Assembly (NCBI GenBank): GCA_051362555.1 | Contig: CM120641.1 | Span: 27,038,401-27,102,400 of the forward strand | Direction of reading: 5' to 3' | DNA: 64,000 nucleotides | Source of the DNA: Lingula anatina | Lineage: Eukaryota; Animalia; Brachiopoda | Shown here: positions 2,932 to 62,435 of the stretch, one piece after another | Layout of the letters: the number at the start of each line of letters is the position of its first letter | Position numbering within the stretch: position 1 is the first letter of the stretch | Notes under the pieces: generated by a model | Seen by the model: only the letters and a program-made list of their open reading frames with translations | Database searches by the model: none | What the model was told of the DNA's origin: nothing | Made by a program: the position numbers and the translations under genes

Positions 2932-5037
2932 TTAACTATGGTCACCCATTGAAGTTCTGTACATTTCATAAGCATGTACCTCTTTATGTTCCTTATCACA
3001 GTACACTCCAATATAGTCCAATTCTAGGCTGAAAGGTCCAGCAGTACCATCTGCTATTATTATAGAACACACTGCGACTCTTGAGAGGTCTAATGGACGT
3101 TGAATATCATTTATAATCCCAGAATTTGTGAAGAAGAACTTAGAAAAGGGGATCTGAAATTCAAAATAAAAAAGTAAAAAATGACTATTTTCTGAAAATA
3201 CGTGTTTTATTATTTATTCCAGCTAATAAGAAAAAAAAGTGCTATAATTAAGTTTGATAAAACAGCAGGAGGTTAGTAATAACGGTTTAGATTACAGTCA
3301 ATAGAAATTTAGATTTATAAGCACATATTTCCTCTAATCCTGAAGTAAATAAGAGACCATTCCCACAGATATTTAGATCGATATATCCCCCTGTCGCGTC
3401 TCACTAGATTTGTGTCAGCTTAACTTTAGTGTGTGCCAGGCTCCCGGAAGCTGACAGCAATTTAGCATGAATCCCCAGGGAGTTAGGTCTATCCAGATGG
3501 ATCGGTCTAAATCTGTGGGAACTGAGTCTAAGACCCCATTCCCAGAGATTAGATCGATCCAAACTAGATTGACCTAACTCCCTGGGGGGTTCATGCTAAA
3601 CAGCTGTCAGCCAAGCGGGCACGAAAGTTAATTACCCCCTTACAGCTTGTAGTTGGCGGGACAGACATTTAAGTCGGATTATCTGACAGTAATCTAGTGA
3701 GACTTCCCAGGGGGGATAGATCGATCTAAAATCTATGGGAATACGCCCTAAAACTATAGTTATTTATTTTCACCTTGATAGTCTGCCAATAAGGACCACC
3801 CCTTGTGTACAAGAAGAAGTTGTGCATGTCATAAAAGTTGAGGTTAAACTGTTCATCACGCCCAAGCCCAATTCCATACACTCTCCCATCGCCACGGCAA
3901 CGGATAACAAGATGTGTGTAGTCTGACCAATCAAAAGGGGCTCGTCGTCCAAAAGATTCCTAAATAGACATATACCATGGATTAAAACAGACTGCATATC
4001 AATTGCTCAATTATTCATATATTTACAAGACCCAACAGTTAAAAAAGGCTATTTCACAGATAGTCTCTTTGTCTCACATCTCAAAAATTCAAAATTATCT
4101 GGAAAAACAAATGTATCAGGCCAAAGAAAATTTAAACTCCAAGGCATGAAAGAGGCCATTCAGAATGAGATGAGCCAAGTGCTAGCTAGGCCACGACCTA
4201 AATATGGCGGACATACATGAAAGGAAGACCGCTTAATCGTGTAATGGTCTCTCCGCCTCTCATACACCTCCCCACGTGTCATTAATTCCTGCATGGGCAC
4301 AGTAATTAAATCTCAGGTCAACTCAATCGGTCAAGGGACAATGCGTGGGGAGCCGTGTGAGAGGCACAGAGACTATTACAGGATTAAACAGTCTTCCTTT
4401 CATGTAGGTCCGCCATATTTAGGTCGTGCACTTTAGGTTTAGCACTCGGCTCTTCTCATTCTGAATGGCCTCAAATTGATTTCAACAAGAATGTCTGAGA
4501 GGGTGGTTAATAAAAAAAAAATAGTCTAACCCATCTCCTCTTGTTAATTAATGAACAATATCCTGCTCTCTCTTGCAATTCTCTATTCTGAATAGTTGTT
4601 GCAAGGGTTCCTCGGAAATGTCCATGATTGTTTTTTGTTAAGACAAGTTCTGCCTCAGAAAATCCAAGATTTTCTTGCTTATCTGTGCTCAGAATCCAGT
4701 CATTAAGACTATCTTCCCCCTTAAACTTCCATACAATACGAAGATCACCATGGCGGACTTGTTGGCTGATTTCTTGGCTAATAGGCGAAAGGAGAGACAA
4801 GGGATTACTGCGTAATTTTTTTCCCCACATCTTAAGGTGTTGTGGAAAGTTTTCTAGAACTTCATCTGTAGTTGGTATGCCTACATAATAAGACGGTGGC
4901 TTTTTTTTATGATGGAGGACTGACTGCCTTTTGTATCTTTTGGAAATCACACATGTCTGAAGTCTCTGAATACCATTGGTCTTTAGTATACTGTTCCCAG
5001 AGTGTATAACAGCTGTCAGTGGACGTGCCATTAGCAT
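2932..5037 (-). CDS. NDUFAF1: Complex I intermediate-associated protein 30 (CIA30), mitochondrial complex I assembly factor, about 304 aa
   Basis: Coding exons 5037-4531, 3959-3774 and 3153-2932. Motifs: W.F...L..W...D...GFS, AGYCS, DWSDYTHLVIRCRGDGR, LYTRGGPYWQ..KIPFSKFF, GPFSLELDYIG. The N-terminus is basic like a mitochondrial presequence. Acceptor at 5050-5051; the start could be ATG 5037 or 5031. A non-coding exon 1 probably lies near 6830-6990. Confidence 0.9.
3353..3528. mobile_element. Foldback MITE, family A copy 1 (PIF/Harbinger-like)
   Basis: Imperfect TIRs gagaccattcccacaga...tctgtgggaactgagtc, flanked by TAA at 3350-52 and 3529-31. Related copies at 3532, 23411 and 61003. Confidence 0.75.
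3532..3748. mobile_element. Foldback MITE, family A copy 2, abutting copy 1 in opposite orientation
   Basis: gaccccattcccagagattagatcgatc...gatcgatctaaaatctatgggaatacgccc, flanked by TAA at 3529-31 and 3749-51. Confidence 0.75.
4152..4472. mobile_element. Long-TIR MITE, family B, in an NDUFAF1 intron
   Basis: Near-complete palindrome: gaggccattcagaatgaga...tctcattctgaatggcctc, with inner arms cacgacctaaatatggcggac / gtccgccatatttaggtcgtg. Shares its core with 57338-57636. Confidence 0.85.
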
Positions 5038-10902: not shown

Positions 10903-19586
<8,684 letters not shown>

Positions 19587-20224: not shown

Positions 20225-20306
20225 AAGCGGAAGATGCCACGTCGAGTCCCACAATGCAATGGAATGTGACGTCAGCGGAAGGGAATTCCCTCTCCATTGA
20301 CCTTTG
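20225..20306. promoter_or_regulatory. Candidate bidirectional promoter SEC23/selenoprotein L
   Basis: GCGGAAG (ETS) twice; TGCCACGT 20235-42 (CREB3/CrebA/XBP1-type); TCCCACAATGCA 20247-58 (ZNF143/Staf-like); TGACGTCA 20267-74 (CRE); GGGAATTCCC 20281-90 (kB palindrome). Minus-strand donors at 20130 and 19833 and a plus-strand donor at 20598 flank the cluster. Confidence 0.65.
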
Positions 20307-20930
20307 TCATGTTTCAAAACATTACAACGTGTTAATTACAGCGAGAATCTAAACACGTTGATATGTAGGGTGAGTAAAATAAGTTAAATAAAAGTAACAA
20401 TAATCACAATAATAAGTAAACAGATATCAAACTGATAATCTGCATACAAAATGAAATAATAGATGATTTGTGAATGTGAAATGACAAATTGTGCTGGATA
20501 TGGCAGTGAGCAATTCAAATTGGAGGACCTTGGAGGGGAGGAGCAGGTCACAGATTGATATTAATTTCGTGATTATAAGAATGCGATTTCTGTCGAAGTA
20601 AGCCCTAAAATATTAATATCATAATTACCCCTTCCTCTTTTACAAGCATTTTACAAATGCCAATTTTTGTAAACAAACTAGTAGAAGTCAGTTTCTTAAA
20701 ATTTATTTGAAAATCATTTTTTAAAAACATACTCTGTGCATCTATACATCTCTTATCTTGTACTAAAGTAAATGTGAAAATCATTTTAAAAAATCGCTTG
20801 CTACACTGTAACAGTATATAATTAATCAGACTACTAGTACTTACATGTATATTGCCCCAGTACATATTCAGATTCCAGTGAAAAAAATTGAATTGGTAAT
20901 TATTGTGATTTAGAAAGAGTACTGTATGAT

Positions 20931-23900
20931 ATGGACTGCACAAAGGAATTGCTACATAATGGGCTTGAGGAAGCAATTCATAAGGCTGAGGCGATTTTAA
21001 AGAAGGCCAAAGATTATGCACAAGGTAATAGTTTTTCTAATGTTTTGCCTTGTGTTTAAGATTTCTAAGAGATAGAGGATAATTGATAAATAATGACTTA
21101 ATGTACCAATAAGGTGCATTTCAAAAAGTTTTGTAATTCTGGAGGGGCATATTTAGCCACTTAATTATCTTGTTAAATGTGAAAAGCTGGGTGCATCACT
21201 GCATAAGATATGAATTACAGACCTGTACACTCATATTTCAGATCTCAGTGAATTTTTTTCAAAAAGATAGAATCTTAAAAGCCTAGATATTAATTTGTTG
21301 AAATTTTGAGAAGACAGATTTTCATATACTTTTGATATATTTAGGTTAAAAGAACCTGAATTTTTCACAATTGATTTAATTTCAGAGTCTATGAAGGACT
21401 TTGCGACAGACAACCACACATGTCTTGGTGGTTTAATTGGGGTGTATTACAATCTTTTCACAAGGTAAAAATTTACTTTATAATAGGAAAATCTAAATAC
21501 AGTTTACATTAACATGCACTGAACTATCATTTTAAAATACAAAGAAAAAAAATTAAATATAAGTTGGTTATGAATCATATAAAATTATCCATAGATCTAT
21601 ACCTTTCACAACAATCATTACATTGCTGAAGGGTGAAATAAATATTATTTATTTTTCAGTTTGGGTGTTAAATCAAGACAAGAACTTGAAAAAGTGTGTG
21701 AGAGAAATTTCAGGCATTTGGAAATACAGGAAAGTTGGCATGAATTAGAAACTGTGGAGGTGAGCACTGCACTTGATGAATGTAAAGATAAATTTTGACA
21801 AAAATCATAAATGAATAAGTTTTTAGTTTTCTCTGAAAGGGTATAGTGAAATAGTTTTTAATAATGCATACTGTCACCAAGTAGAAAATGTCTGTTATGT
21901 GTCTGTTTAAACAGTAATTTTATAAAGGTAAATTGTGAAAGTTACCTTTACAACAAAATTTTCCTTGCTTTTTATTCAGAGGGAATGGAATCGGTTTCTT
22001 GATGATGTAGATAAAGAGCAATACTTTACAGAGTATACCACAGTACCTCTGCAGATTGGCTCTCCAGCTCCTGTTGACCTCCCTTTAATAAATTCTCAAA
22101 ATAATCAAACAAATTATCTCAAAGAATGGATGAACAGCAGCTACCTAATCCTTATCTTGTTGCGCCATTTTGCTTGACTGCCATGACGAGACCACATAAA
22201 AGATGTGGAGCAGAGAGAGGTAGATTGGTTTTCAGCTGATTGACTGAATTAAATTTTTGTACCTGTACATTGTTAGAAATGTTTGTCTTTTTCAATCACC
22301 AGGTTTTATTTATGTACGAGTTGATGAAATGCTAAATTTTGAATAAGAATTCAAAGCATATCATTTTAAGAATACTAGTTCATTTATCACAATGCCCACC
22401 ATGATTGATAGTTTATTTGTTTTATTAGTTCTTTTAGACTTACTTCATAAGTTATTTCTGAACTTGGTGATGTTGTGATTTCAGTCAGAACTGACAGCAG
22501 GTGGCAACAAGATAATTGTGGTCTCCTTTGGAGGGATCGAAGGTGCCCGCCAGTGGTTAGAGGTCACACAATGTCATTATGAACTCTTACTAGATCCAGA
22601 TAGAAAGGTATTTATATTCTTGCATCCTAATTCATTGAGTTTAATGGTTTATATAAACTTGTATTTAGGTTTATTGCAAATGTGCCATGTGTTTAAAACT
22701 CTGTAACATAAAAAACTTGAATAATTACCAGGTTACTTTGATGTTGAATTTGATAAATAAATCTCATGTGTCCAATTCACTTGGAAAATGTATATTTCAG
22801 TTGTATCATGCTCTTGGCCTAGGTAGATCCATGTCAAAGGTCAGTTAATATGTATTCATAAACTGAAATATTATTGAAGTAAAAATAAGTAAATTTTGTA
22901 AAAGCACAGCAGACTTTCTTTTTTGTTTTCACATAACCATAAACTGCCTTTTGTCTTTAGTAGAGCTCCCTATGACCTTTGTAATCATATAGTACACTTA
23001 GTGTGTCTGTAATATTTTGAAGGAATTCTTTTATCATTAAATTAAATGTGCAAATATAATTTAAAATCAAAAAGAAAAAAAAAAACATTGTCAATGTTTA
23101 TAATATGAATATGGCTATCATTATTCAGCAGATATGCTGAATGTTTTCTTTTGTTGAATTTCATGTAGGTGTGGAAAACTGACACGCTGAATTATTATGC
23201 GGAACAGAAAGCATCTGGACGAGCTCTTCCCAAGCCAGTGGAGGATGATCCATTGCAAGTAATGAGGAAATAAATGGAAATAAATTGGAAGATAAAAATA
23301 ATGCTAAAGAAAAGAAAGTAATATGTGATTACAATGTACTTTGTTGTATATGGCATATACAGTGTATTAGAATAATAAAAACTTTTTGCTATATCACAAC
23401 ATGAGGCAAAGGGACCATTCCCACAGATATTTGAATTGATCTATCTCCCTGGGGAGTCTCACTAAATTGCTATCAATTCAACCGGCTTAAATGTCTGTCA
23501 CAACTTGTAAAGCTTTTTAGGGGGTAATTATCTTTACCCCCTAGCTGATTTGTTAGGCGTGACAGACATTTAAGCAGGTTAGTTGATAGCAGTTTAGTGA
23601 GACTCCCAAGGGAGTTAGACCGATCCAGGTATGGGAACCCAGTCAAAGTGACACACTCATTATAGTACAGGTAGTAATGACTAATTTGTTTGGTTCCAGA
23701 TGGGTGGTGATTTTGTCATAGATCCAACTGGCCACTTGGTTTACATCCACTGCAGCAAAGACCCCACTGACAGACCCTCAGTTGAACATCTCATTCAGCT
23801 TATTAAAGTAGGTGTCCTAGAGCTACAGTACTAATACATGTTTGCAGCCCCACTTTTCTCATCTTACACATTCAATTGACTTAGTTAAGTATATATGACA

Positions 23901-24384
23901 GATGATTCTCTTATATGTACGTCTACTGGAGGACAATACATCTTTTCTGATTCTTCAGTTTAAAGGAAGTGAGACGTGTGAGTGATGAGAGTGTACTAGC
24001 TACAGTAGTACAGGTATTAGGTCTGTAGGTGTTTGTTTGTGGGTGCATGACAATAGTCCAAAGGTTAAAATGTCAGAAGGTTCATCAATGCAAATGTTTA
24101 CTTTAGAACCTCCAACCAACAAACCCAATTATTGAAAAAAAAATTGATGAAAACATTACATTTTTTTTAATGAACCATTGTACTAATGTACCTTCAGTCT
24201 AGATGCAAGATGCACCCTTGTTCTCAGATGAAGTCTGTTAGTTAACATATTTCTCCATAATATACTTCATTACTTATTATCTCATTAAGTTTTGTTTATT
24301 CATTTGATATATATGGAAGATGCTAAAATAAAGATATCTTTATATTATCAGGACCATGCTGCCACAGGACCAGAAAGCAAGTAA
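20931..24384 (+). CDS. SELENOL: Selenoprotein L (thioredoxin-like AhpC/TSA fold, UxxU motif, two selenocysteines), about 301 aa
   Basis: Exons 20931-21024, 21386-21464, 21660-21759, 21980-22219, 22485-22607, 22801-22839, 23169-23258, 23700-23807, 24352-24384. In-frame TGA at 22175-77 and 22184-86 lie within LLRHFA-U-LP-U-RDHI. Downstream: VVSFG..EGA..WL..T.C.Y..LLDPDRKLY.ALGL and DPLQMGGDFVID..G.L...H...DP.DRPSV. A SECIS is present in the 3' UTR. Confidence 0.93.
23411..23644. mobile_element. Foldback MITE, family A copy 3, in a SELENOL intron
   Basis: gggaccattccca...tgggaacccagtc, with internal inverted arms ggagtctcactaaa/tttagtgagactcc and cttaaatgtctgtcac/gtgacagacatttaag. Confidence 0.8.
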
Positions 24385-24400
24385 AATGTGTTGTTCCTTT

Positions 24401-24470
24401 TAAATGCCAAGATGACAGTTTTAGTGTAAATCAGTTCCTACTGACCACAAAAGCTTGAAGGATGCATTAA
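24401..24470 (+). promoter_or_regulatory. Eukaryotic SECIS element, type II (cis-acting RNA)
   Basis: Helix I aatgc/gcatt. Core AUGAC 24412-16 pairs with UGAA 24456-59. Helix II agtttt-a-gtg / cac-a-aaagct. Unpaired AAA at 24428-30. Apical minihelix tcagt-(tcct)-actga. Confidence 0.9.
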
Positions 24471-25419
24471 GAGGAGCTGCATTCTATTATTTCTGAATTT
24501 ATTCTTCCACCATGGATGGATTTTATCAATTGCCAATTGTACTTGATTATATCAAAATGTTTTTTTTACTGACAGAAGAATATAAAGGGATTATAAGTAA
24601 ATATACAATGGAAATGTAATCTGATAATTTATTCAAGATTATTGTTTTTAGCCTAGATAAATCAAAAATCATCTACTGAACTACAGGGTGTTCATACCAT
24701 GAGTTGAGCAACCCTCAATTGTGTAAAATGTGATATATGACCAGCATCAATGAAAAATGATTTAAAAAAGACTATTCTTTATTGGTGAGGTTATTGTTTT
24801 ACAATTAATTGGTTATTTTAGCATGTAAAAGTTTTCAGGATTATGCCTGATTTTAGGATTTTCAGTTTTTATTTTGGTCATCTTTTATCTTTATAGTCTA
24901 AGTGTGATGAGAAATTGCAAGTAATGTTTTCAGGATTTTTAGTTCTTACAACTGTCACCCTTGTGTTAGCATACAGCAAAACAATATTATGTATTATTGT
25001 TCCTGCCGTATATTAAGACTTTGTTCAATAACCATCTAAAACATTGAATCAATTGCACATGTATGGTTGAATACTAAAGATACTCAGTGAACTATCTCTA
25101 AAATTATGTTTGTCATCTTTGCTTATTGCCAGTACAATTGATGTGAATATTACATATTTTAATAAAAAAAAAACATCATTTAAAATGTATTTTAACTATA
25201 ACAGCTAGCAAAATATAGCCTTCCCAAAAGTCAATAAAAATAAGATGAATATATGTGATTTTGTAACCCAAAAATAATAAAATAAATAAATAAAATAAAA
25301 TAAAGTGTTATAATTAACTTCAAAGGTTCCATAATAGTAAATCTGACCAACTGCACCCGTGAAATTATTGCATTCTCAAACCTTACTTTCTGAGAGGTGC
25401 ATTTAGCCTATCTTGTTTA

Positions 25420-25434
25420 CAGCGCCACCTATGC
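25420..25434 (-). promoter_or_regulatory. CTCF-like motif between SELENOL and the ninein-like gene
   Basis: cagcgccacctatgc; the reverse complement gcatAGGTGGCGCTG matches the CTCF core. Confidence 0.4.
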
Positions 25435-25820
25435 TTTGCATTTCTTGCATCTAGGGAAGCTTTTTAGCAGGTGGGAGATTTGTGTGAATATTTGAATTTC
25501 TTTTGTAAACATATGTCTTCCATCACTCTCTGGAGAAGAACAAGAATCAAACCTCCCAATATTGACAATTTAGTTTGCATTCTTTCAAAGAAGAAGAGAA
25601 ATGGTAATGGATATGAATGGCAACTTTTCGGATGATTGATTGAAATGATAGCCAATAATCCTGGCGGCTGCCCATTCATATTTTTGTCGCAGCCAAAAAT
25701 GATATAGAAAGTTCAGTTCGGCATATTTGAGGTAAAATGTTACCTTTTGTAATGGAATAAACCACATTAAGAGAAATTATGTAACTGGGAACATAAACTG
25801 TGATAAATGATCCGTCCAAA

Positions 25821-26082
25821 ATGGCTGAAGACAATGAGTATGTTATGCAGCTGCGGGAGGTATTTGACAGTTGCGACCATTCCAATACTGGCTATCTAAA
25901 CAAAGCTGAGCTAAAGGAGCTGTGCATTAAGTTACAGCTGGAGGACCAGAGTGATGCAGTGATCAGACAGTTGTTAGGCAGTGATGAGGAAGGCAGGGTG
26001 AGTTTTTATTAGTATTATTTCTTTTACATGTACATGTACACTCTGGTCTAGCAGGTTTTCTACTATAACGCCCCTGTTTTTT

Positions 26083-26128
<46 letters not shown>

Positions 26129-29100
26129 TTAAATGTATTTTGATGTTGTAGATGCAACAGACATCTTTGCCATCTTTGCATTCACGTTTGGTGGCAATAT
26201 GCATGTGATGAATTATAAGCTTCTTAAATGAATGTTTGTTATATTTGTAATTGCAGGTTGGGTTTGACGAGTTTAAGGAAGCTTTTGTGTCAGTGTTGTC
26301 AAGTGCTGTTGATGCTCTTGATGATGCCTCCTCCACTGAGGATGAAACCAGTCAAAGAGAAGATCCAGGTAGTGATATTAAAATAAACCAGCTGCCTTTG
26401 TCTGTTTAATTTTATCATTGCAATATATCATGTACTGTATGCTTTAAAACAGTTGGAAATTTTTATGAATGGTAAAATTAAATATATCTTTAGTGGTATT
26501 GTAACTGAATGCAAAAATTCGATGTCCACCCAAAATCTATTTCATCATTTAGTTAGAAATAATATATTATTATTTCTTTTTGATTTTGTGATTTCAAGTA
26601 ATTTTTAAACAAACAGAGCAATATAATTATATTAGTGAATAATGCTATTACAGTATCTTATAAGATGGAAAATGTATGATTGATAATTCCATCCCATTCA
26701 GGATTATAGACTTAAGTTTCTAGGGAGAAGTTTTTTTACCAATTATTTCCTAAACCAGATTAAGAATATGATTCTGTTATTCTGTCAATAGGAGAAACAG
26801 TGTCCCCAAAGTATGTTAAAGGCAGCAAGAAATATGGCAGAAGATCGAAACCTGAGTTTGACACAGACTATTCTGATACAGATGTTAGTTATCAATCTCC
26901 TAGAAACACACCCAGAGTACGACTTGGCAATAGGGAAAGACTGTCTTCCATTGATTCAGTTGAGGTATGTTTCTTTGTGCAGTTGATTCACCAAAATACC
27001 AATGAATTGGACTAACTTTGTGAGATATTGTTTATCAGATAAATCAAGTAGGTATTCTAGAAGTAAACTATATTTTGAATAGTATAAAAGGTTTTTAAAG
27101 AGAAAAAGAGGAATTATTTTTTCAGTAAAGTTAAGAAAAACATATAAGGGGATGCTACCAAGCATCTGAGCAGAGATTGAGTTTGTTAGTTGTTCTTCTG
27201 GCCTCTTGAATGCTTTTTTGCTCCTCTTAAACAATTTAGTTCATCAGATCATAACAATTATTGTTCTTATTTGACTTTTTATTTCTATTTTTTAGAGCAT
27301 AGGGAACTCGCCAACTGACAGCAAGTTTAATAAATCAGATGACAACGTTCTAAGCAGACCTGGCAGTAAAGCTGAAATGTTTGAAGCCGAAGGTAAGTAT
27401 CAGCAAGGGAAAATTTTTAAAGATATTTAATACGATATTTCTTGAACACAGGGATTTATAAATGAACCTTGATTTTGCTTATTGAATTCTTATAAGTTCC
27501 ATATGGTTATGCTCATCATCATCATCGTCATCATCATCACTGTAATTATCATTATTGATTTCAATACCAACATACTCCAGGAATTAACCATACCAGAATA
27601 GACTGACCTATGTTAGCCCATACAATTCTAGCCTCTTTCATTAAACTTTAGATTAAAGGTTAACTTAAAGCAAATTTACCCCGAGTTTCATAGTGCACTG
27701 GAAACTCATTTCTCTACATTTTGTCAGAGGATAATAGAAATGCTGAGGCGTGCTGTAGTTGAGAGACGAGTCTGCAGTTTCCTCTAAAACTTAAATATTA
27801 CACTGGGTTGCTCTTGAAGATGAACTATTTTATATTAGGAGTAACTGTACATTGCTCTGAGATATCAATTTTAGCATAATTACATTTAATGAGAGATAAA
27901 CATGAAGGTCTACGGGTATCAACCAGGAATCTTATTTGCAATCAGAATTGCAGTTCTGTGATTTTCATTGAGTCCATCAATGTTATGATTGCTGATTTTT
28001 CTGCTGAGTGTGCGAAAATTGGGAAACTGTTTTTAGGGTCATTATGTGAAACCTTGGATGTATTGCAATTATAACTGGTCACACAACTGACTCGTTAAGA
28101 ATCTTAAACCCAAACCTGAGGATGATATACATTATTTATAGAAGAAGATGGAACATGAAATTGATTTTTAAATCAACTGTGGTTCCATACAGGTAACTGA
28201 GAATTTCTAAGTGTTTATGGGCTCATTCCCAATAATAATAATAATAATCTTTATTGGAAAATCGCAACCCGAAGGTTGAAGTTATACAAATATGTAATTT
28301 ATTTATTTATTTAAATGAAATTTTTATTCAAGTCAGAGAAGCTAATGATACTTTTGTTCTATGAAGATCAATCCAACTCTACAGGGACTCTAACTAAATG
28401 CAATCAAATTAAGAGATTTCAAAACACGACTCCTCTTGTTTCCAACATACTGGTTTCATCATTAGCTTTTTCTGCCAGGAGGAGTCATGTTAATCTCTTT
28501 ATCTGATTGCATTCAGCGAGAGTCCCCATGGAGTTGAATCTACATTGAACAATAGTTTCATTGGTAACAATATTGTGAAGTAACCTAACAACTTATCTGA
28601 ATTCACACATATGACTGGTATGTATTTGCAAATGGAATTTGGTTTTGATTAGAAAAAAATGATTACTGTACATCTATCCTTGTTGCTTAAATAATTGTAT
28701 GCTTACAGTAACTCTTCAGAAACCTTAAGTTAGCTAAGAATATTACACATTCAAACTACTCAAAAAATAATTCAGAATGACTCGAGTTCAGTAGGTATTA
28801 AATTTAGATAAGAAAGATATTTTCCTTTCAGGTTGCTAAATTCATCCCATTTAGCCAGGTTTTATTCATCAAAAGAAAAAAACTACTTAAAGAGATAATA
28901 GCTTTGATAATTTTAGCTCACATTAATAGAAAAACGTAAACACTGTTAACAATGTAAAATAATATATAATGCAGGGATTGTGGTTTATGAGTCAGTGTGA
29001 GCCCAGGCACCTGCTTTGGTTGTGTCAGTTTGATGGATATTCAGCACTCAGGTGTAGAGCTTGAAGATAATGAATCAGGAGAACTTGTAAAGAGGTCACC

Positions 29101-32100
29101 GCAGTTCTATTGAACTTTATAGCAACAGGGTGTAAGGTACTGGAAATATGAGAGATATTTGAATGGTTGTTTGATAGCTTTAAACGCACCATAAGAGACT
29201 GTGAAATGTTGTGTAACAAACAGAAAAATGATTTGGTTCAAATTCCGCATGTCAGTTTTTCATTTTTCTTTCCTTTTTTTTGGCATGCTTTTCACAATGT
29301 TGATTTGGGGTCTGACACATGCTTTTTTTAAATTCACAGTTGTACAATGGAAGCATGCAAATGGGGTCTCAAATTGTCAAGATTGTCCATTGAGCAATCT
29401 TCATGTGAGATGACATAATTGTTCACTATCAAAAGAAGCCAGTAAGTTTATCTAAAAACATAGCAACAGTATAGGGTGTGCTTCTTTGTTTATGAGACAT
29501 TTCATTAACTTCAGCCAGATCTGGTTTAAGAGCAAGATTAAACTCACGTCTGGCATAAGATGGAACTGACTCTGGTAAGGCAGTATTTATGGTGTACAAG
29601 ATAGTAAATCATTAGTGATACCTAAGGAATGCATTTTTTTTTCTGTGGGAATCTCCGGAATATTTTTTATTAAGCATGCTTCTTTTATAGTAAGTGGATG
29701 AAAATTGATAGCCTCAAACCAGCAGGATAGTGGGAAGATATCCATTAGTTTATTGTGTGTATCTCTATGTGGGGCTATATGGATGGTATTACAAGTAAAA
29801 AACTATTGCAGTTTTTAAAATCATTTTTACCTGTCAGTTTTCCGTATACTAAAGGTGGCACAGTTTTTGAAACGGTTCCTGTTCATGTTTGTTAATTATT
29901 TACACTGTCACATTTTGAAATCAAATTAATACTTTTGATAAAATCCATGACGTTTTCCATTTTATAATCTAGCATAATGATTTAGAATACTTTCAAGACA
30001 AATTAGAATGACATTTACATTAACTGCTGTGAAATTCAAGATTTTTTTGTTAGAAACTATCTTGAGATGGTCCCTGAAGACCTTTACCTATCTCACTGAC
30101 TGCATACTTTATCTAGAACGTGAGGGTTTCTGCTGCTTTAGATAAACACAGTTCTTCTGCAGGCAGCTTTGGTTAAACAACATGTAGTGCATCCCAGGCA
30201 GCCTTCATCGCTAGGCAACAATATAAGATAAAGAACTGTTGTCCATAAAGTGACTGAAATGGTCAGGTATGATATTGAAACTGCGAGAACAGTGTTAAAT
30301 AAGTACTGATGTCTGTTTTGTTTATTTTCAGATTTAAGTTGGCATTCATGGTGATACAATAAGAATTTGTGTGGCTCATTTACTTGTAACAATATAAAGT
30401 GCTTAAAGCTCTGTTGTAGAAGGATATCAGACATGTATCTGAAAGACTCCTGTGTAACAGGATGTTGAAAGGTGTTATATTGTAATTTTGGAGAGATGAA
30501 TCCAAAAGAGGTTGTTAGCCATTGATATACGTGAAGCATTGTAAATAATGGGCGGATCCAGATATTTTTTTGACAGTCTTCCAAATTATCTTTTTTGAAC
30601 TGTCCTCCATTTTTGACCGTGTTCTGACAGAAAAATTAGATGTCCTTCAGTGTAATCTAAAAAAATTCTGACTTTCTTCCAGAAGACCCAGCAGACGGCT
30701 TCCATCTGCTCCTGAATGACTTAGATTATATATTTTTATTATTACATTTTGATGTCAGTGTACGGAAAGGTTTTACACAAAGCAAGGAAGAACTGTATAA
30801 AAATATATATAATTCCTTGCACATCAGATTCTGTAAACTTAACATTTTCTTTCATTACCTAGGGAGAGTTTTAACATGAGGCATGCACACTTCCTGTGAT
30901 GAAATGATTCATGAACTTATATTGTAATTTTCTAAATAGTTTGGACAACCAGATTGAATGATGCAATGAGTTTTGGTACCTGTCTCTTGAACTAGCACAC
31001 ACCATTATATTATTATCATATTTTTTATCTAAACCACATGCTGTTATCCAGGGGCTGTGTTTCACAGCAAAAAAAATTGACAGTACATAATTTCAGCCCA
31101 GCATGTGATATATACAGAAATCATCCTCTGAGTTTAGTGAGTCAGCTGTGAAATAATAAAAAAATGTCTGTGCATTTCCAGGCCAGATGGACCAGTCTAT
31201 GAGTGCCTTAGACCCTGTCAGTGAGGAGCAGCACCTGAAGGCAATATGGAGAGAGCTGGGCGTTGGTCAGATGGGGTCACTCAGCATACATGAACTCTCC
31301 ACTGTCTGTGAACATATTGGTATGGAGGAAATGACTGATGAGGTAAGGCAGGAAACAATGGCTGTGCTCTTGGCAACTGGTACCAAATGTCAGCTTCACC
31401 TTTTATTATAAAATTTAGATTTTGATGTTATGATAAAGTTAAATTGAAAAAATTCTCATATTGAGAACGCTCCTCAAGTTTTTTTAGATATTTTTAAAAA
31501 CAAATTTAAATGAATAAACTTGGCTATTAGTTTAAGATATTGAATATAAACACTTCATCCAACAGATAGTTTATTGCAGTTTTTGATTTTTTTTAACCAC
31601 ATTGTAATTCAAACTGATGCAGTATACTAAACTCATATTCATACATAGCCATGCAATACATGATGAAATCTTTTTTTTTTTTAATTTTTCAGGAACTCAG
31701 TCAGCTTTTTGAGAGACTAGATGTAGACCAAGATGGCCAAGTCAGCTTTGATGAATTCCTCAGGGGTCTGTTCCAGCATGGGGGCTCAAACCTTCCATCC
31801 ACTCCAATCCGTCCAATAAGCTCCCAGAAACAAAAGCTCAAACTACAGATGTCCATGTCTATGAATATTGATGAATCTTTACGTGGACAGACGCCGTCCA
31901 TAGTTGCAGTTGGGAGTGGTTCTGGGGTGTTCTCTTCATTAGATGTGGGAAATACAGGGTGATTGTCTTTTTTTTTGTGTGTTTATGTGAATAATACATG
32001 GAACCACATGATTTAGAATTCCAAGCGCTTTCACGATCATTACCAGCCATAAAGTCATCCATTTTTGCCTGAACTAAAATGCATGCATTTCTTATGAAAC

Positions 32101-32921
32101 ATCAGTATAAAAGCATCACTGTGTTTTACAGTTTCCATGACTCACATGGTAAAATACAATATGTAAAGCACATAAGTAATTCCTTTTGATGTTCATGTTC
32201 ATTTGCAATACAGATAAAAGCACTACGAATTGAATGGCATATTGATAAACCAAAAGCTTATTGTTTGGTTATCTATTGTTCTGCAGCTACGCCAAACCAG
32301 AGGAAATTACAGAGTTCTGGGACAGTCTTGGAATAAAGAATACCACAGATATCTTGCAGGTACTTAAAAGTTGATTGTTGCCAAATTGGAAAATATATTC
32401 TATTTGTGTGAGCTAGATAAAGACAAAGGACCACCTGATTTTGCAACTATTTTACTAGCAAATATTGGGTAAGATATTTTTTATATACAACATAGAATAT
32501 CTATGCGGTTTTGCCACATGTTAAATTTTCATTCATATAACTCTTTTTTTTTTTGTCTTTTTCAGCATTTAGAGTTTGATACTCATTCCAAGATCCACCT
32601 AGCAGAGCTGTCGTATGCTTTGGAGCAGGAGATTATTGGTATGGAGGAGGACAACGCTGTCTACCAGGCGGCTGTGGCAACATATCAACAGGAGCTACGG
32701 CATCTCAAGTGAGTAGGATCATCAGGTGTATCAACATAGATAAATTAATAAATGAATGAATAAATAATAATAATAATAATAATAATTGTTGGAAGTGCAC
32801 ATTTGTCGGTCATACTTGGAACAGCTCACATATTGCAAAAAGTGCTGTGTGTCTAAGCTGCAGGAAGCAGCTGGCACAGATAATAGATCCAGAAGATCAT
32901 CTAAGAACTAGAGGGATTCAC

Positions 32922-32966
<45 letters not shown>

Positions 32967-35900
32967 GTCTTGCTTGGTAGTGCGTATATCATCAGAAAGA
33001 CGCTATCCATCTCATGAACACTAAAATTGCCTCAGAGTCATGGTATGACTCCGGCATCTTAGTAATTACCAAAGGTTACAAGAATCATCACATAATAATA
33101 ATAATAATAATAATTATTATTATTATAATTATAATAATAAAATTGGTTAGTATATCTAAAGGTATAGTTATTGTGAAAATCAAATTGTGATGTAACCGTA
33201 CACAAACAGGCAGTGGTTCTTCTAATTAATTTGATTACAAGTCTGTTTTGTTTTTCTGGAAGTTTATTATCATAATGCATTTTTCCAGATCTCATACAGA
33301 ACAGTTGACCAATGAAAGAGACAAATTAAAGTCTGATGTGAATGATGCCCTAAACAGAAGTACAATTCTTGTCAAAGAGGCAGATGAAAGGCATATGAAA
33401 ATGGAGAAGGAATCTGAAACTAAGATAAAGTGAGGACTGAAAACTTCTAAAGAACTTATGATAATTATTAATGTTGTTGAGTATCTAAAAGATGACGTAG
33501 AAGATCTTTTGGTTTTTAAATCAAGTTTTGTTTAAGCTGGGGAATAAAACTAACTTGTCATCACTAGTATTGTCATAAAAGTTATTGATTAAAATGAGAC
33601 ATTGTTAACATATATAAATGAAATATCATTTAAGACTACTAGAGAAGAAATACCAAGACCAGATTAAGCAGCTGCAGTCAAAACTAGAAGAAGAAACTGA
33701 ACATTTAACCACCCAAGCAAGAAAACAGAAGCAAAAGTTGGAACAGGAATTGAATTCTATGAAAGAAGAAGAAATCAAATATAAAGACCAGATAGCAGAA
33801 CAGCAAAGGGTAAATATGTATTGTTTCTTTGTTGATATTTCAAAGTTAATGCTATAAGTAGATTTTGAACCTTAGATTTGCAATCATACAAAAAGATAAA
33901 CAAGTGCTTTTGACCTCTTATGAATGGAACATTTTGAAACCCCACTACTAATTAAGGAGAAAATAGACCTTTAAGCAAAAAGAGAAAATACAATTAATGA
34001 AAAGAAAATACAATTAACGAGGCTTATATGTTTTATTTTTTCATATTACAGGAGATTGAAAAACTAGAGAAGGAACTGGGAGATGCCACTGAGAAAGTGA
34101 TGGAACTGCAAAAAGTTAACTTCAAACAACAACGAGAGCTAGATTCAGTGGCAGAACTGCAAGAAAGGGTAAGATTGCATAAACAAGAGTGATCTTGAAG
34201 AATGTGTTTATAAACCTAAAATTGGCCATTCTTTTTCTGTGAAGAATTTAGAAATGAAAATTTATGTAGGTAGGTTGGGGAGACAGATTTAAACAGAGGG
34301 TCCAATATGAAAATAAACATTTGGATATGGCATACTGGAAAAAAATTTTTTGAACCGATGTTTCATATAAGTGAACATTTCCTTTAGAAAATAGGATCCA
34401 GGTTTTTGATTATAACATAATGTATTTCTATTTTTTTTTCTTTCTATATAGTTAGCAGAACTCGAGTCAAACAGAGACCTCATGAAAGATGAACACCAAA
34501 AATTTACACAGCAAAAACTAAAACAAGTGGAGACAGAAAACAAGGTGACCTTGTATTTATTATTGTGATTATTTCTAAATTATATCTAAATTATATCATT
34601 CTGACTTCTGAATTTGTTTGAATGAATCCCATGATTGAACATTTGTATATACAGATGTTGTATGTGTCTGTATGTATTTTGGGTGTCTGTGTCATCTGCG
34701 TTGCAGTCATGCCAGTACCTGCAACTGCAAATGATTTTTACAAAAGTTGTTGATTTTTTTGAACATATTTTGATGACATTATCCCATGATTGATGTACTG
34801 TATTTATTTTATTTTATATTTGCTCTTTTGGTAAAGGCAGATTTCTTTTAAAAATCAGCAGGCAGCACATGATCTGATAATTTTTACAAAAGATATTGAT
34901 ATTTTGCTTTTTTTTTTTGGTAATGTTTATCCAGCTGTCCTTTTTTCTGTTAAATGTCTGCTTATTTGACAGCTTTGCTTTAGAGTTACCCTTTGGCATA
35001 CATTTTACACATTGCACACCTTGTTTATCAATACAGGAACTAAGGGATAAGAATGATGAGCTGACAATGGAAGTCGAGACTCTAAAACAGCAGTTATCCT
35101 CCAAGAAAAGAGGGAAGTCAAGAAAGTCTAGTGAACACAATAAGCCAGTGAGGAGTGGGTCGTTACTGTCAGACTACACCAAACCTGTGATAGTCAAAAG
35201 GGCAGGAAGGTCTTCTTCAGGTTGGTTGCAGCATAACCATTATCAGATATCTTTTGTCTCTCGTGACATGCTTATGTTAATGAATCCCGTTGTATCTTTG
35301 GGATGTGCATAAAAATAGCAAGCTCAGTTGTCAGGTACATTTTTGTTGGAATTTTTAGGTAAGTTAGTCAGAAAAGTTTTTTTTTTCATATTTTTATCAA
35401 TGCTTTCTCTCATTTACCTAGCATATTCTTTTTTTGTGACTACAAATTTAACCCTGTACTTCCAAACAAATCAATTTTACAATGCTTTCATTCTACACAT
35501 GGACTTTCCTTACATAAACTTCGGCTACAGCAATGTTTATGGGAGTATACATCTATCTGTTTATATAAAATTATGTATGTTTAGAAAATTCTGATGAGGA
35601 TGACAGTATGGCAACTGGCAGACCCCGGCGACGTCTGCCATCCAAACCAAATACTCAGGATATGACAGGGTCTAATGAAGAAGATGGTAAGACTTGTGCA
35701 GGATGAGTACTGAAACTATTGGAAACATGTTAAAGTGTTGAAAATATATTTTGTATGTTTTTAAACTTTATTTTATGTATATTGTGAATACTATAATAAT
35801 TCATGTTTGACATTTAGGTGAAAATATATGCTTCTTATATTTGAATATTTCTATCCATGCTATTGTGATAATGAAATTATTAATGTTAACTTTGTTTTTT

Positions 35901-38900
35901 GCATTTTTTACACCAGACAAGCTACAAACGGAGATAGACTCATTAAAACAACAGCAAGAAAGAGAGGTCAAAGAACTACAAAACCAGTTAGAAATGGAAA
36001 AGAAAGAAATAGAACAAGCCTACAAATTAGAGATTACCAAAGTCGAGGAAGACTTTGCCAAAGAAAAAGAGGACTTGTTGAAAGGATTTACTTCAGAAAA
36101 GGAAAAGGCCAAAAAAGAGTTTACCAAGGAGAAGCTGCAATTTGCAGAAAATCTGGAGAAACAGCTGGCAGATAAATTTGAAAATGAAAGACAGGAGCTG
36201 GTCATAAGATATGAATCAGAGAAGAATCTACTTGAGCAAAAGTTTGCAAAGGAGAAAAACAAGATGACAGAAAGGTATGATTATATGGGTTTTTTCCAAA
36301 GTTTTGTCTGTGCACAGAATGCCTTATTTTCCCATAGAAAAATACTGTACACAAAGACAGAAGATGACACAATTTTCACACTCTCACACATATATGAAAT
36401 AATTAATATCTTCCATCATCATCATCATTATCATTATTATTATAATTTTATTTTATTATTAACATAAGTTACATATTTTCTCCTTATGAATTCAGACTAA
36501 AGAAAGAGTTCCAAGAAGATCTCCGTGCTAAGCTCCATGAGCTCCAGGAGGAACATGAAAGGGATAAGCTAGTTCTGAGGGGTGATTTGACCAAGGATAG
36601 GGCAGAAGTGAGTAATATGCCATTATTTTCCAAATTTAAAAAAAAAAAAAGAAAAAAGAAAAGGAAAAAGAGTGTGTCAATTTGCATATACTGATAATGG
36701 AGCTGAAAAGAATCTGCCCAATGTCATTGTGTGTAGACATATATATATAAGATCAATCACCAAGAATTTCATCATTCTTTATTTAAATTTTGGGACATCC
36801 CAATGCTGACATCCCCTTTTACATGCCAAATGTAATTATTCATCTTTGGTTAAATTAATTATGTGATATTACATGATTCTACTATTGGTCATATCTCAGT
36901 GGGGGTAGTGATCTACACAATGGTGCCTCTCAGAGTAGTCAAGATTGTGATGATTTTTAAAAATTATGTGATTAATATCTGTCCCATTCACCCTTAGTTT
37001 GAAGAGGCAAACAGACAGAAGAAGGAGATGGAACTGAAAATGAAGCTACAGAAAGAGGAGATGGAGCTTGAATTTGCCAGAGAGAAGCAAAAACTTAGAG
37101 AGAATTTTTCACAGGAGAAAAGGGACATTGAGGACCAACACAGAATGGAGATTTATGATTATGAGAATATTTTTGTTTTAGTAAGTGCTTTGGCAAGTAA
37201 AATTAAATAAATTTAATTGTTACCATTTAAATATACTTGTTATTTTCAGCCAAGATTCTTGACAGCTGATACTTGATTATAATATTAAACTTATTTTATT
37301 ATATTGTTCGTGCACTACTTTTTTAATTGTCTCAAAAGTCTATAATTAATTGCAAATGAAAGCTATTGCGTTAACTACCTATATATTCTGTATCAGTTAC
37401 ATTGTATAATGTGTAAAAAATTAGTATCAACACATGTACATAAATAGGATGTTAGAATTTATTTTGGAAAAAGTGGTAACACAAAAAAAAATTACAGAAG
37501 AAGATATCATGATATGCGTAAAGACTGAAAGAAGCATCAATGAAAAAAAAAGTTGATTTTAAGTCATCAAAATGATTACATTACAACAGGCTTGTTCAAA
37601 TATGATTATAAATATTTTAATTATAGACATGAATTATAAATATATTATCTGAAAATTGTTCTTTTAATTTTTTTCCTATTTGCTCAATTTTTAGGGAACA
37701 GAAGGCCTGAAAGGTAAAATCAAGGATGATTTCTATGCTCTGTTGAAGAAGTGCACAGCGGAAGAAGTAGAAGAAGAGAGGGTGAAACTTTATGAAGATT
37801 ATGATAAAGAGAAGGAGGGAATGAAAGAAGCATTTGAACAAGAGAAGGCTGCCATTTGTAAGTTCTTGCATCAGTGTGTCACTGCCTGGACGGATTTTGT
37901 GCAGACATTCCCTTCAGTTACAATGCCTCATCTTATATGGCATACTTATCTTTTGTTTTAGTTCAGCTTTATTACAATTCATTACCTCTTAAGATTTTTT
38001 TTTATTCAAAAGTCCTATAAAAAAACTCAATACTTTTGATAAGCATTAATCAAAAGAAGATACATGTATCTTGCATTTAGTGGACTTTGGAATTCAATAA
38101 TTTGTATATAAATATATGTGTATATAATTTATTGATCACACTGAAATTATCTCCTTATAGCAAGGCATGATCTTAATGCCTTCACATGAAAAATATATAT
38201 ATCATATGCACATTAGTAACGTCATCCTTTGATATCTTCAGGCCAAGCTTTCACAGCAGAAAGAGACGAACTTGAGCAGACATTAAAGAAAGAAGTAACT
38301 GGAATGAGAGATCAATTTCAAGTTGAAAGAGATCGCCTGGAGAAACAAATCATACGCTACGAAGAGAAGCTGGAGAGCCTGAAAAGAGACCGAGATGCAG
38401 TGGAAGACAAACTCAGAGAACAGATAGATGAACTGGAAAAGCAAGGGGGAAGAAACCCTTATGATGATGAAGAGTTCATGGAGGAAGTCAAGGAAAAACT
38501 AGAGGTTGTTTTGCAGATAGTACTTTATATTTGAGTAAATTGATATTTAAAATACATTTTGAGCTAGGAAGCACTTCAAAAGCTCAGACCCAGGCTGAGA
38601 AAAAAGACAAGAAAAATATATTTGAAAAACATTCGGAGGAGGCAGATATATTGAGATATATGGAGATATGTAGGTGGAGATACATCAGTATTATTCGATT
38701 CATTTTCACCACTAGCTAAACTAGACCAAGTGTTTTAATTGGATTCCTTATACTTTCTGAACCTTAGAGGAAAAAAATTGCTGGTTATCATTTTTTATTA
38801 GATTTTTTTATACCCAACAGCTGCCACAGCATCACACTCTTGATATAAGTTCCCCATTTACATTATGACTATATTTTACTGCTTCAGGAGGAATTTATGG

Positions 38901-41900
38901 GTCAGCTGGAGAGAGTCCAGAATGCATTTGATGCTGAGCGAGATCAGTATGATCACAGGATAAGTCTTCTGGAAGAACAGCTGGAGGATATGAGGAGACA
39001 CAAGGATGTGGACGAGGAGAACCTGCGTAAGGCAGAAGAACTGGAAGTCAGGCACAAGAATCTGGAGAGAGCTAAAGCAAGGGTAGGGATGACTGACGGG
39101 ATGGTAGATCTGTTAGCTTTTTGTTACATGTAACAGTTTTTGCATTGTCATTTGATGTGTGATTTCACCAAGAGTTCTAACAGCATTTTGTTTATGGTAA
39201 ACTTTTATTTTTCGCTCTGACGTTTAAAAAAGCTGACCTCTCACCCTATTCTCATCTTTTATTTGTATTCCCCCATTGTGGCCACTATTCGATGGTGTCA
39301 TGATCAGTTATAATTCAAGCCCATAGCATGACACATTACATTCACTTGATTTAGACATCACAGTTCAGCATATGCTCACTTTCACTTTCACTTTAGGCAG
39401 AACAACAGATTGAGGACCTGAACCAAAGAGTAGATCAACTCCTCTCAGAGAACAGTGATATCAGGCACACCCTGGAGGGGAGGATAGAGAGGTTGGTGGC
39501 AGAGAAGGAGAGATTATCGCTGTCTGCCAAAGAGGACAGTTTGAGAGCGGCACAGCTAGCAAGCAGTCAGGAAAAGGTTGGTATATGTATTATGGCATTG
39601 TTATGGAGTTCTTTCGTCCTGGTTTTTGTGAAAATTGCTCTTTGATATGTGCACCGGTTGTGGCATTGTGTTTTGATTGTTTATTGATGTTATGGTAGGA
39701 TTTTGATTACCTGCATGCCCCCTTTTTGTTGAAAAGTAGCATATTATTAAATTAAATTGCCAACAGTTTAGAACATAATAAATTGAAACTTAATTAGACT
39801 TTGATTATTGCATATTTTGTTTTAATAGTTCCTAAAATTTAACAACCCATCAGTCATAATTTGCCTTGAATAGTTCTTTAGGCAAATTTCCATTGAAATT
39901 TATAATAATAATGCACGGTGTATTTGATTGGGTTGACTGTTTTGACTCACAGACACTGAAATGTTTGATTTGCTGTGGTTTGCAACTAATATTGAATTGT
40001 TTCCCCTTGCACCAAGGCTGCACAGGATGCACTGCACAGTGAGAAAACTGCACTGCAGCACAAGGTGTCTGAACTGCAAGACCAGGTCAGAGACTTAAAT
40101 ATGAGGCTGGCCAGCCTGGTGGCAATAAAGGTTAGCCCTTTTAGTATTAGGAAATGGAATGTATTCAGAAATATATGTACGGCTATGTATTTATGTGGCA
40201 AAAGTTGGAAATAGATATCCAAATTCCAGTATAGCTTGACCTCCTGGGGCATCATGCTGACAAGTTGCTCTTGGGGGTTCAACTCTTGTATGACACTTAA
40301 AGAATTCATGGGAGTTTTTAATGGAGTCTTTTGTATAATCCATGTAATGCAAGATAATTTTTGAATTGGTATCAAATATTTTTTTTGCTTGAATAATTAT
40401 ACTCAAATTTGACCGTAGGTGTTTTTCAGGACCTATTCAGATTCTACAGATACTTATTTTTATTCATGAAAAATTAGCCCTTCTGCTGTGTATTGGCGTT
40501 GATGAATATTCCACTGTCCTGCACATTCTTTCCTGTCACTTTCACTTCACATTTTTATTTCAATTCACATATTTCACTGAAGGCTGAGCACACTACACTG
40601 TTGGGAGAAAAGAACTCACTTGAGGATAGGTGTCACCACTTGCAACAAGAGCTTTTGAGTCTCAGAAATAAACTGACTTCCACTTCAGCAGCCCAGGTTA
40701 GTGCAAATATGTTATGTTTGTGTAAATAATAGATGTAGAATGTCTCTTTCCTACTTAACTTTCCGACTGTAACATTCTACATATAAATATACACTCGTTA
40801 TTATATATAACAGTCTTGCTAAATTTTATTTCAAAAATGCCTTCTACTAACCAAACTTGCGGTCAGAAATTCATTTGTATGAATTGATGTGAAAATAATT
40901 TATTGCTGTTGTGAAACACATTGGCAATTGTGCTGTGTAATGGATTTTTTTCTTTTTTTTCTGTTTAACTAATACTAACCATTGAAAGCTATATTTTCCT
41001 GATGGTTTATATTTGTTAATGCCCTTGTGATGGAAAATGTGCCTTTTGCCTTGAAATTCTTAGCCACTAACCCATTGCATGTACTAACATTTTGCTTAAA
41101 GGCTAAGTGTGAGATACTCTCCACTGAGAAACAGGCTTTAGAAAATAGACTGAAGGAATTGCAGCACCAAGTAACACTTGACCAGCTGAAATCTATGGAA
41201 ACTGATAAAATTAAGGTACTCTTTAGTCACTTTGATTTTTGAATTTTGAAAGGAGGTGGAAGTGATCAGATAGTATTTATGCCAAGAAAACACAATACAA
41301 GCAATGTTATGCCACTCAGATGTGACATCTGAGCTTCATTTGGAATAAATTGCTAGATTTAAGAATAGCCGAATGTTTCATGTGTCATAACTATTTGATT
41401 TTTTTTCCTCAGGAAAGAATGGAAAACTGGGAAAATGAACGCAATATTTTGAAGGGACAGCTGCAACAAGCTAATGATCAGGTGTGTGGCAAAATTGTTT
41501 CAGAATGTGATAAAACTTCTTTTGCAAAGTCTTTTTTTTAAGTTTAATTAATATGACCATGCTATATCTCAAGTAGATATTTGAAGAATTACTCTGCATC
41601 TTTAAGGCAACAGACAACATTTGTTTCTAAAAAAAATGACAACTTTAAGGTTGTCGGAAAAACATGCATTTTTTGTGATAAATGATTCAGAATATATTTT
41701 TACATTTGTACTGTGTTTTCTAAGCTCCTGGAAGCCAACACCAGTCTCTCGATTGCCGAATCTCAGCACATCCGGGAGATCCAGGATCTTAAGGATCAGA
41801 CAGAAAATATGGTGAATACTGCCATGTACAATGACCAGAAGTTACAGCTGGTGGGGGCAGAGAAGAAAATCAGGGAGTTAGAACAGGCACTTGAGATGAG

Positions 41901-62385: not shown

Positions 62386-62435
62386 TAGTTTAATTGTTGA
62401 TTGCTTCTATATTACAATTCCACAGAGGGCAAAAA

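Follow-up and report, generated by a model that had tools for sequence, protein, structure and literature searches.

A 64,000-nt stretch of Lingula anatina contig CM120641.1 was analyzed (termed the window here; all gene model coordinates are those of the whole stretch, which is AT-rich with 30 to 40% G+C). On its forward strand, at 20931 to 24384, lies what is very probably an expressed SELENOL (selenoprotein L, SelL) orthologue of a Lingula-like brachiopod. It has nine coding exons, and two in-frame UGA codons are both predicted to be decoded as selenocysteine (Sec) with the aid of one Sec insertion sequence (SECIS) element in the 3′ untranslated region (UTR). The gene is transcribed and spliced, its mRNA retains both UGAs, the exons downstream of them are under constraint, and the DNA of a distant relative has TGA at both sites.

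The coding sequence (CDS) joined from the nine exons is 906 nt long (301 codons), and its translation is interrupted by two internal stops only, the TGAs at codons 157 and 160. The gene is made up of the following features:

Approximately 20300 to 20369, forward strand: noncoding 5′ exon (3′ end firm, 5′ end approximate)
20914 to 21024, forward strand: exon 1, with 5′ UTR from 20914, start ATG at 20931, and CDS part 20931 to 21024
21386 to 21464, forward strand: exon 2, N-terminal helical domain, recovered by TBLASTN of the database proteins P0002 and P0030
21660 to 21759, forward strand: exon 3, N-terminal helical domain, recovered by TBLASTN
21980 to 22219, forward strand: exon 4, end of the helical domain, first thioredoxin-fold strands, and the redox motif RHFA-U-LP-U-RDH
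22175 to 22177, forward strand: first in-frame TGA, codon 157, predicted Sec
22184 to 22186, forward strand: second in-frame TGA, codon 160, predicted Sec
22485 to 22607, forward strand: exon 5, peroxiredoxin (Prx)-like domain, with a match to Pfam AhpC-TSA_2
22801 to 22839, forward strand: exon 6, a 39-nt micro-exon with both flanking junctions in RNA
23169 to 23258, forward strand: exon 7, Prx-like domain, recovered by TBLASTN
23700 to 23807, forward strand: exon 8, Prx-like domain with the QMGGDF...DRPS block, recovered by TBLASTN
24352 to 24384, forward strand: coding part of exon 9, with the TAA stop at 24382 to 24384, followed by 3′ UTR beyond 24900 (RNA coverage extends to 24900)
24403 to 24468, forward strand: Rfam SECIS_1 match in the 3′ UTR, a SECIS-like stem-loop that starts 19 nt past TAA

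All eight coding introns are of the GT..AG type, and exons 4 to 9 each start in phase 0. Besides the two TGAs, no frameshift or stop was present in the joined CDS, and the splice sites were all intact. Exon 4 reads REWNRFLDD...LILILLRHFA-U-LP-U-RDHIKDVEQRE (codons TGA-CTG-CCA-TGA-CGA-GAC-CAC at the motif) up to a GT donor at 22220, and both of its alternative frames are riddled with stops. The original prediction, made from the DNA letters, had the open reading frame (ORF) remaining in frame past 22177 to the donor at 22220, with five in-phase exons following, and all of these coordinates hold. Its coding exons likewise stand; what RNA reads add to the gene extent that it proposed is the noncoding 5′ exon, which ends at 20369 and is spliced to 20914. 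The start ATG has G at both −3 and +4, and since a TAG in the 5′ exon (20366 to 20368) lies in frame upstream of it, the start codon is well defined. Two upstream ORFs were also seen in the leader: a minimal ATG-TAG (20363 to 20368) inside the noncoding 5′ exon and an out-of-frame ATG in weak context at 20926, 5 nt 5′ of the main start, which opens a 24-codon overlapping ORF (20926 to 21000). When three full-length homologs were searched against the window by TBLASTN, the SelL exons were recovered colinearly, with exons 1, 6, and 9 missed. The other matches in the window were three weak ones (E values of 0.03 to 0.5), and no second SelL copy was found there by this search, leaving one copy only.

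Transcription was assessed in four raw-read RNA-sequencing runs from three studies with the same species label (X1, X2, X4, and X7 being among the run labels). The original prediction had pointed to RNA mapping over all junctions as a check, and all eight predicted joints are covered by reads, six of them in every run and two in three of the four:

21024/21386, forward strand: 74 reads, four of four runs
21464/21660, forward strand: 88 reads, four of four runs
21759/21980, forward strand: 38 reads, three of four runs, none in X4
22219/22485, forward strand: 36 reads, four of four runs
22607/22801, forward strand: 37 reads, four of four runs
22839/23169, forward strand: 50 reads, four of four runs
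Intron 7 joint, a 441-nt skip placed at 23255/23697 (CA..TC), forward strand: 178 reads, four of four runs
23807/24352, GT..AG, forward strand: 61 reads, three of four runs, none in X7

The intron 7 joint would be identical to the GT..AG joint 23258/23700 if the reads carry a synonymous A-to-G change at 23258. In the stranded libraries (X1, X2, and X4), the first mate of essentially all exon reads fell on the reverse strand, and thus the SelL RNA is on the forward strand. Loose read ends before 20913 were present in 29 reads of X2, and an 18-nt piece of their consensus matched 20351 to 20368 exactly, which places a noncoding 5′ exon ending at 20369 and joined to 20914; splice sites are present in the sequence at both positions (GG/gtgagt at 20369/20370 and ttag/AAAGAG at 20913/20914). 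A cluster of read molecules starting at 24370 in the last coding exon (9 in X1 and 22 in X2) probably arises from the alignment of short overhangs across the 23807/24352 junction.

Among the joints listed, none bypasses the TGAs. No variant at ≥3% was found at 22148 to 22219 in the four runs, where depth over the TGAs was 11 to 31 reads per run, and therefore the mRNA keeps both UGAs. As the original prediction implied, splicing does not bypass the TGAs, and transcripts continue beyond them. The 15 exon 4 variant rows at the 3% threshold all fall within 22006 to 22147; the variant set of run X7 in this exon differs from that of X1 to X3.

Relatives of exon 4 were sought with a full phmmer search of 1.84 billion representative proteins (U entered as C; E value, ≤1e−3). 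It returned 24 matches, of which 17 were SelL-like. The remaining seven were long proteins in which several stretches matched; of these, P0003, P0014, and P0020 were read, proved to be unrelated repeat proteins, and were counted as spurious. In 12 of the 17 SelL-like relatives, the predicted protein ends in LLRHFA (or RHLA or RHFG), exactly at the position of the first TGA, and the other five read AWLPWR(D/Q)H, with Trp at both TGA positions. Cys was found at either site in none of the 17, despite its presence in the query. The shortened group includes a 156-residue truncated gastropod protein named "selenoprotein l [Plakobranchus ocellatus]" by NCBI/UniRef (P0015), and the hypothetical protein P0019 of Patella caerulea was also recovered. 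The joined model is 36% identical to P0015 over 145 amino acids (E value, 5e−26), 38% identical to the full-length P0007 over 285 amino acids (E value, 3e−64), and 45% identical to P0002 over 152 residues. The naming of P0015 and the Prx-like fold described below support the assignment to SelL with a UxxU motif that the original prediction had made. A word-index search with exon 4 against proteins of 141 to 2,000 amino acids gave no match, a PDB sequence search with the same exon gave nothing at an E value of ≤10, and no genomic locus was found for P0017. Two protein searches returned no near-identical protein, which is consistent with the earlier suggestion that the gene may be unannotated in L. 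anatina but is weak evidence for it.

How the motif appears in the DNA of a relative can be read from L001, an intronless 1,438-nt metagenome contig encoding P0005 (a second locus for this protein, L002, covers residues 74 to 123 only). At the motif, L001 reads CAC CTG GCC TGA TTA CCC TGA CGG, that is, LLRHLA followed by TGA-TTA-CCC-TGA-CGG, and its frame stays open for 142 further codons after the second TGA; the remaining in-frame TGAs lie only in the 3′ UTR. Aligned by TBLASTN, the model is 40% identical to L001 across 284 residues with a single gap (E value, 1e−65), and both stops of one are aligned to both stops of the other. The expectation that homologs would carry Sec or Cys at these positions was thus borne out in the form of TGA-xx-TGA in L001 DNA, together with the predictions cut at the first TGA and those with Trp at both sites.

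The 3′ UTR of the window gene holds a putative SECIS element. Rfam SECIS_1 matched 24403 to 24468 with 24.1 bits over the full model (positions 1 to 64; E value, 0.22 over 4,227 families), the top bit score in 24300 to 29000 under permissive filters, and the original prediction had set the end of the gene at 24470, close to the end of this match. The start of the candidate lies approximately 456 mRNA nucleotides 3′ of the first UGA. Its predicted fold is type 2-like (−21.2 kcal/mol; z score, −2.33): above a lower helix, AUGA faces UGAA across an internal loop, followed by an upper helix of 10 positions (12-nt strand), an unpaired AAA, and an apical mini-stem. We regard it as a good SECIS candidate that falls short of the curated threshold. 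A stem-loop is also predicted in the 3′ UTR of L001 (1029 to 1112; AUGA/AAA/UGAU; −27.7 kcal/mol; z score, −3.3), approximately 20 nt after the stop. The spacing between stop and stem-loop is equally tight in L001 (∼20 nt) and in the window (19 nt).

The Trp-containing relatives raise the possibility that the UGAs specify a standard amino acid, either Trp or Cys, through a changed code or near-cognate read-through. Trp stands at both Sec positions (AWLPWR) in seven database predictions: P0007, P0009, P0010, P0013, P0018, P0026, and P0030. Three of these, P0009, P0010, and P0013, run on after the exon into apparently nonhomologous sequence, as expected of a gene caller that reads TGA as Trp on genomic contigs, and the Trp residues would be the product of such a caller. 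The confinement of the other in-frame TGAs of L001 to its 3′ UTR and the presence of a SECIS-like element past the stop in the window as well as in L001 likewise argue against recoding. Brachiopod nuclear genomes use the standard genetic code. Two tRNA-Sec candidates are recorded for L. anatina in Table 3 of PMC5330540, along with 34 predicted selenoproteins whose families that table does not name; its text-format supplements mention neither "Lingula" nor "SelL". Recoding to Trp or Cys is, on this evidence, highly improbable.

Polymorphism offered a separate view of the downstream exons. Differences between the window and the RNA runs are very dense in 20931 to 24384, at approximately one listed difference per 30 to 35 coding bases. 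Among the 40 best-supported of 97 variant rows, to which the synonymous and nonsynonymous counts refer, 13 coding sites after codon 160 were polymorphic (the inferred site 23258 included), 11 of them synonymous and 2 nonsynonymous. Both replacements, G177A and L268M, are conservative. Random mutation is expected to give a synonymous share of 21% (binomial P = 1.8e−6, or 7e−5 if a share of 30% is assumed). The ratio of 11 to 2 indicates purifying selection on the exons after the TGAs, in agreement with the original prediction.

This ratio bears on two further explanations. Translation might normally end at the first UGA, so that the real product would be the helical N-terminal part (156 residues) and the exons beyond it would amount to a long 3′ UTR, with full-length SelL made rarely or only under plentiful selenium. 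Decoding of UGA as Sec does compete with termination, 12 of the 17 homolog predictions stop at the first TGA, and the N-terminal domain forms a well-folded helical unit in the L001 model described below. A product of this kind would leave the excess of synonymous changes downstream unexplained, as it would the colinearity of these exons with distant homologs, to which they are 38 to 40% identical, and their encoding of a whole Prx-like domain. Moreover, a stop lying four exons upstream of the last junction should normally trigger nonsense-mediated decay, yet RNA depth is comparable on both sides of the TGAs. A truncated product is therefore considered improbable.

The second explanation is a dying gene, in which a former CxxC peroxiredoxin-like gene has acquired two nonsense mutations; it would fit two in-frame stops and a SECIS match under the curated threshold. 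Such mutations would have to have struck the same two positions that are TGA in L001, and 12 independent homolog predictions are cut at the same residue, with no Cys form among the 17 homologs. Strong purifying selection after the stops, the lack of any frameshift or other stop, the intact splice sites, and correct splicing of the transcript also make decay of the gene very hard to credit. Together, the pseudogene, truncated-product, and Trp-recoding explanations take up only a small part of the probability, and an expressed SelL gene remains by far the preferred account.

The fold was approached through homologs. Pfam AhpC-TSA_2 (PF13911; cutoff, 27 bits) matched P0007 with 45.5 bits and P0030 with 32.2 bits, and window exon 5 scanned as a single exon scored 20.8 bits (E value, 5.2e−4), below that cutoff. 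The L001 protein was modeled with AlphaFold from a 16-row alignment that included four window exons, with a mean pLDDT of 87.3 and a pTM of 0.82. The model shows four N-terminal helices (residues 12 to 114) followed by a thioredoxin fold, in which U164 and U167 stand at the start of the helix at 165 to 176, after the strand at 154 to 160. In this predicted structure, the UxxU occupies the CxxC position of a Prx-like thioredoxin fold. The placement of the two TGAs at the CxxC positions, as first proposed for the window gene, was in this way borne out on homologs, both by Pfam on P0007 and P0030 and by the L001 model.

Several points weigh against the assignment. The fold evidence comes from homologs that are 38 to 40% identical to the window protein, Pfam on the window having been applied to single exons. 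The polymorphism counts rest on the best 40 of 97 variant rows, among which 6 synonymous and 8 nonsynonymous changes lie 5′ of the TGAs, placing the N-terminal half under weaker constraint than the part after them. For the SECIS candidate, 24.1 bits is below the Rfam gathering score of 35. At gathering scores, Rfam had no match anywhere in the window, and at an E value of ≤10 over the whole 64 kb, under stricter filters than those applied to 24300 to 29000, it gave 17 weak matches of microRNA and small nucleolar RNA type and no SECIS_1, at 24403 to 24468 included. Rfam on L001 and L002 also gave no match at an E value of ≤1, the 3′ UTR of L001 included. The family name SelL derives from one source-given name and descriptions in the literature, and both Sec insertion into the window protein and its diselenide are predictions.

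If the prediction is correct, Sec-tRNA would be delivered to both UGAs by SECIS-binding protein 2 and the Sec-specific elongation factor, directed by the 3′ UTR stem-loop. Translation would then yield a protein of 301 residues with an N-terminal helical domain (approximately residues 1 to 110) and a peroxiredoxin-like thioredoxin fold, and the U-L-P-U motif would open the first helix, which is where CxxC is found in thioredoxin-fold enzymes. The two selenols could then alternate between diselenide and reduced forms and act as a low-potential redox center. Extending this to the family, animal SelL may be an obligate two-selenium, two-domain protein with a four-helix N-domain docked on the Prx-like domain and no Cys form among its relatives, in which the SECIS is kept within ∼20 nt of the stop in distant lineages because this placement is needed for efficient decoding of two close UGAs. 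This extension is put forward tentatively and is, on balance, unlikely.

Other features were seen around the gene. Sec23A exons lie on the reverse strand at 17758 to 19586, head-to-head with the SelL 5′ exon; one of them is 94% identical to L. anatina Sec23A, with the next best match at 78%, which assigns the window to Lingula or a close relative. A bidirectional promoter region at ∼19.6 to 20.3 kb probably serves both genes. Intron 7 of SelL holds a palindromic element resembling a miniature inverted-repeat transposable element (23427 to 23632), whose 50-nt arms are 84% complementary and whose inner 22-nt arms are 95% complementary. RNA reads cover it in both orientations at 10 to 40× and continue into unlike sequence, and it is therefore a multicopy element with transcription elsewhere; a weaker partial match to it was present at 3658 to 3674. 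On the forward strand at 31618 to 42920, successive exons encode an EF-hand-like segment and then long coiled-coil stretches rich in glutamate and lysine; they apparently belong to one large coiled-coil gene. An ORF at 62394 to 62729, also on the forward strand, has a RING/TRAF-like cysteine pattern (CAKCKDALLNPMQTSCGHRICELC).

The SelL family was reportedly founded by a paper of Shchedrina et al. in PNAS and is said to have been known since 2007. In later literature, SelL is described as a Prx-like protein of aquatic organisms with two Sec two residues apart, inserted via one SECIS and capable of forming a diselenide (PMC2397514, PMC3316567, PMC13134290, PMC2398784); the diselenide itself is reported in PMC2397514 and PMC13134290. 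Table 1 of PMC3473315 records SelL in sponge, Trichoplax, Nematostella, Capitella, and amphioxus and not in Lottia. A literature search on Lingula and brachiopod selenoproteins found no description of SelL in a brachiopod. Since the biology of SelL has already been described, the value of the window gene lies in annotation and comparison rather than in new concepts. For a double-Sec protein in a brachiopod, there is now a gene model that comprises the exons, their junctions in RNA, a 5′ UTR exon, and a candidate SECIS. Public protein sets handle SelL badly: of 17 relatives, 12 end at the first UGA, among them the protein that bears the name "selenoprotein l", and 5 are given Trp at both sites. 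Routine annotation would halve the window protein.

Foldseek searches of PDB with the L001 model identified BCP/PrxQ, ResA, and human prostamide/prostaglandin F synthase, all over the C-terminal 170 to 190 columns. The best structural matches were BCP/PrxQ and ResA (9a4d_B with an E value of 2e−8; 2h1b_A, 1su9_B, 3drn_B, and 3hjp_A). ResA, a thiol-disulfide oxidoreductase, has an active site of the CxxC type; the title of entry 3c71 describes a ResA variant whose CPHC motif is DsbA-like. These matches share 14 to 18% identity and are bacterial and archaeal Cys enzymes; peroxidase activity is not to be assumed for SelL. PRXL2B (prostamide/prostaglandin F synthase) of the Prx-like 2 family has the PF13911 domain in common with the full-length SelL-like homologs. 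The human enzyme (9usa, a C44S/C47S mutant) aligned with the L001 model over 170 columns with a target-normalized TM score of 0.81, an rmsd of 2.6, and 18% identity. It carries Cys where SelL has selenocysteines and, at 163 residues, is without a counterpart of the ∼110-residue N-terminal region.

Bacterial UxxU proteins of the Prx-like 2 type from marine metagenomes, as outlined in PMC2398784, have the UxxU in a distant Prx-like fold, as here. They differ from the window gene in being prokaryotic, with a bacterial SECIS within the CDS and no introns. The SelL of fish and invertebrates shares with the window gene the UxxU, the Prx-like thioredoxin fold, and an aquatic animal host, and its single SECIS has a candidate counterpart in the window gene. 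Set against SelL as characterized in the papers citing its founding description</find> (PMC2397514, PMC3316567, PMC13134290, PMC2398784), no defining difference was seen. UxxU, the diselenide, and the Prx-like fold are features already described, and the window gene adds a member to the known SelL family.

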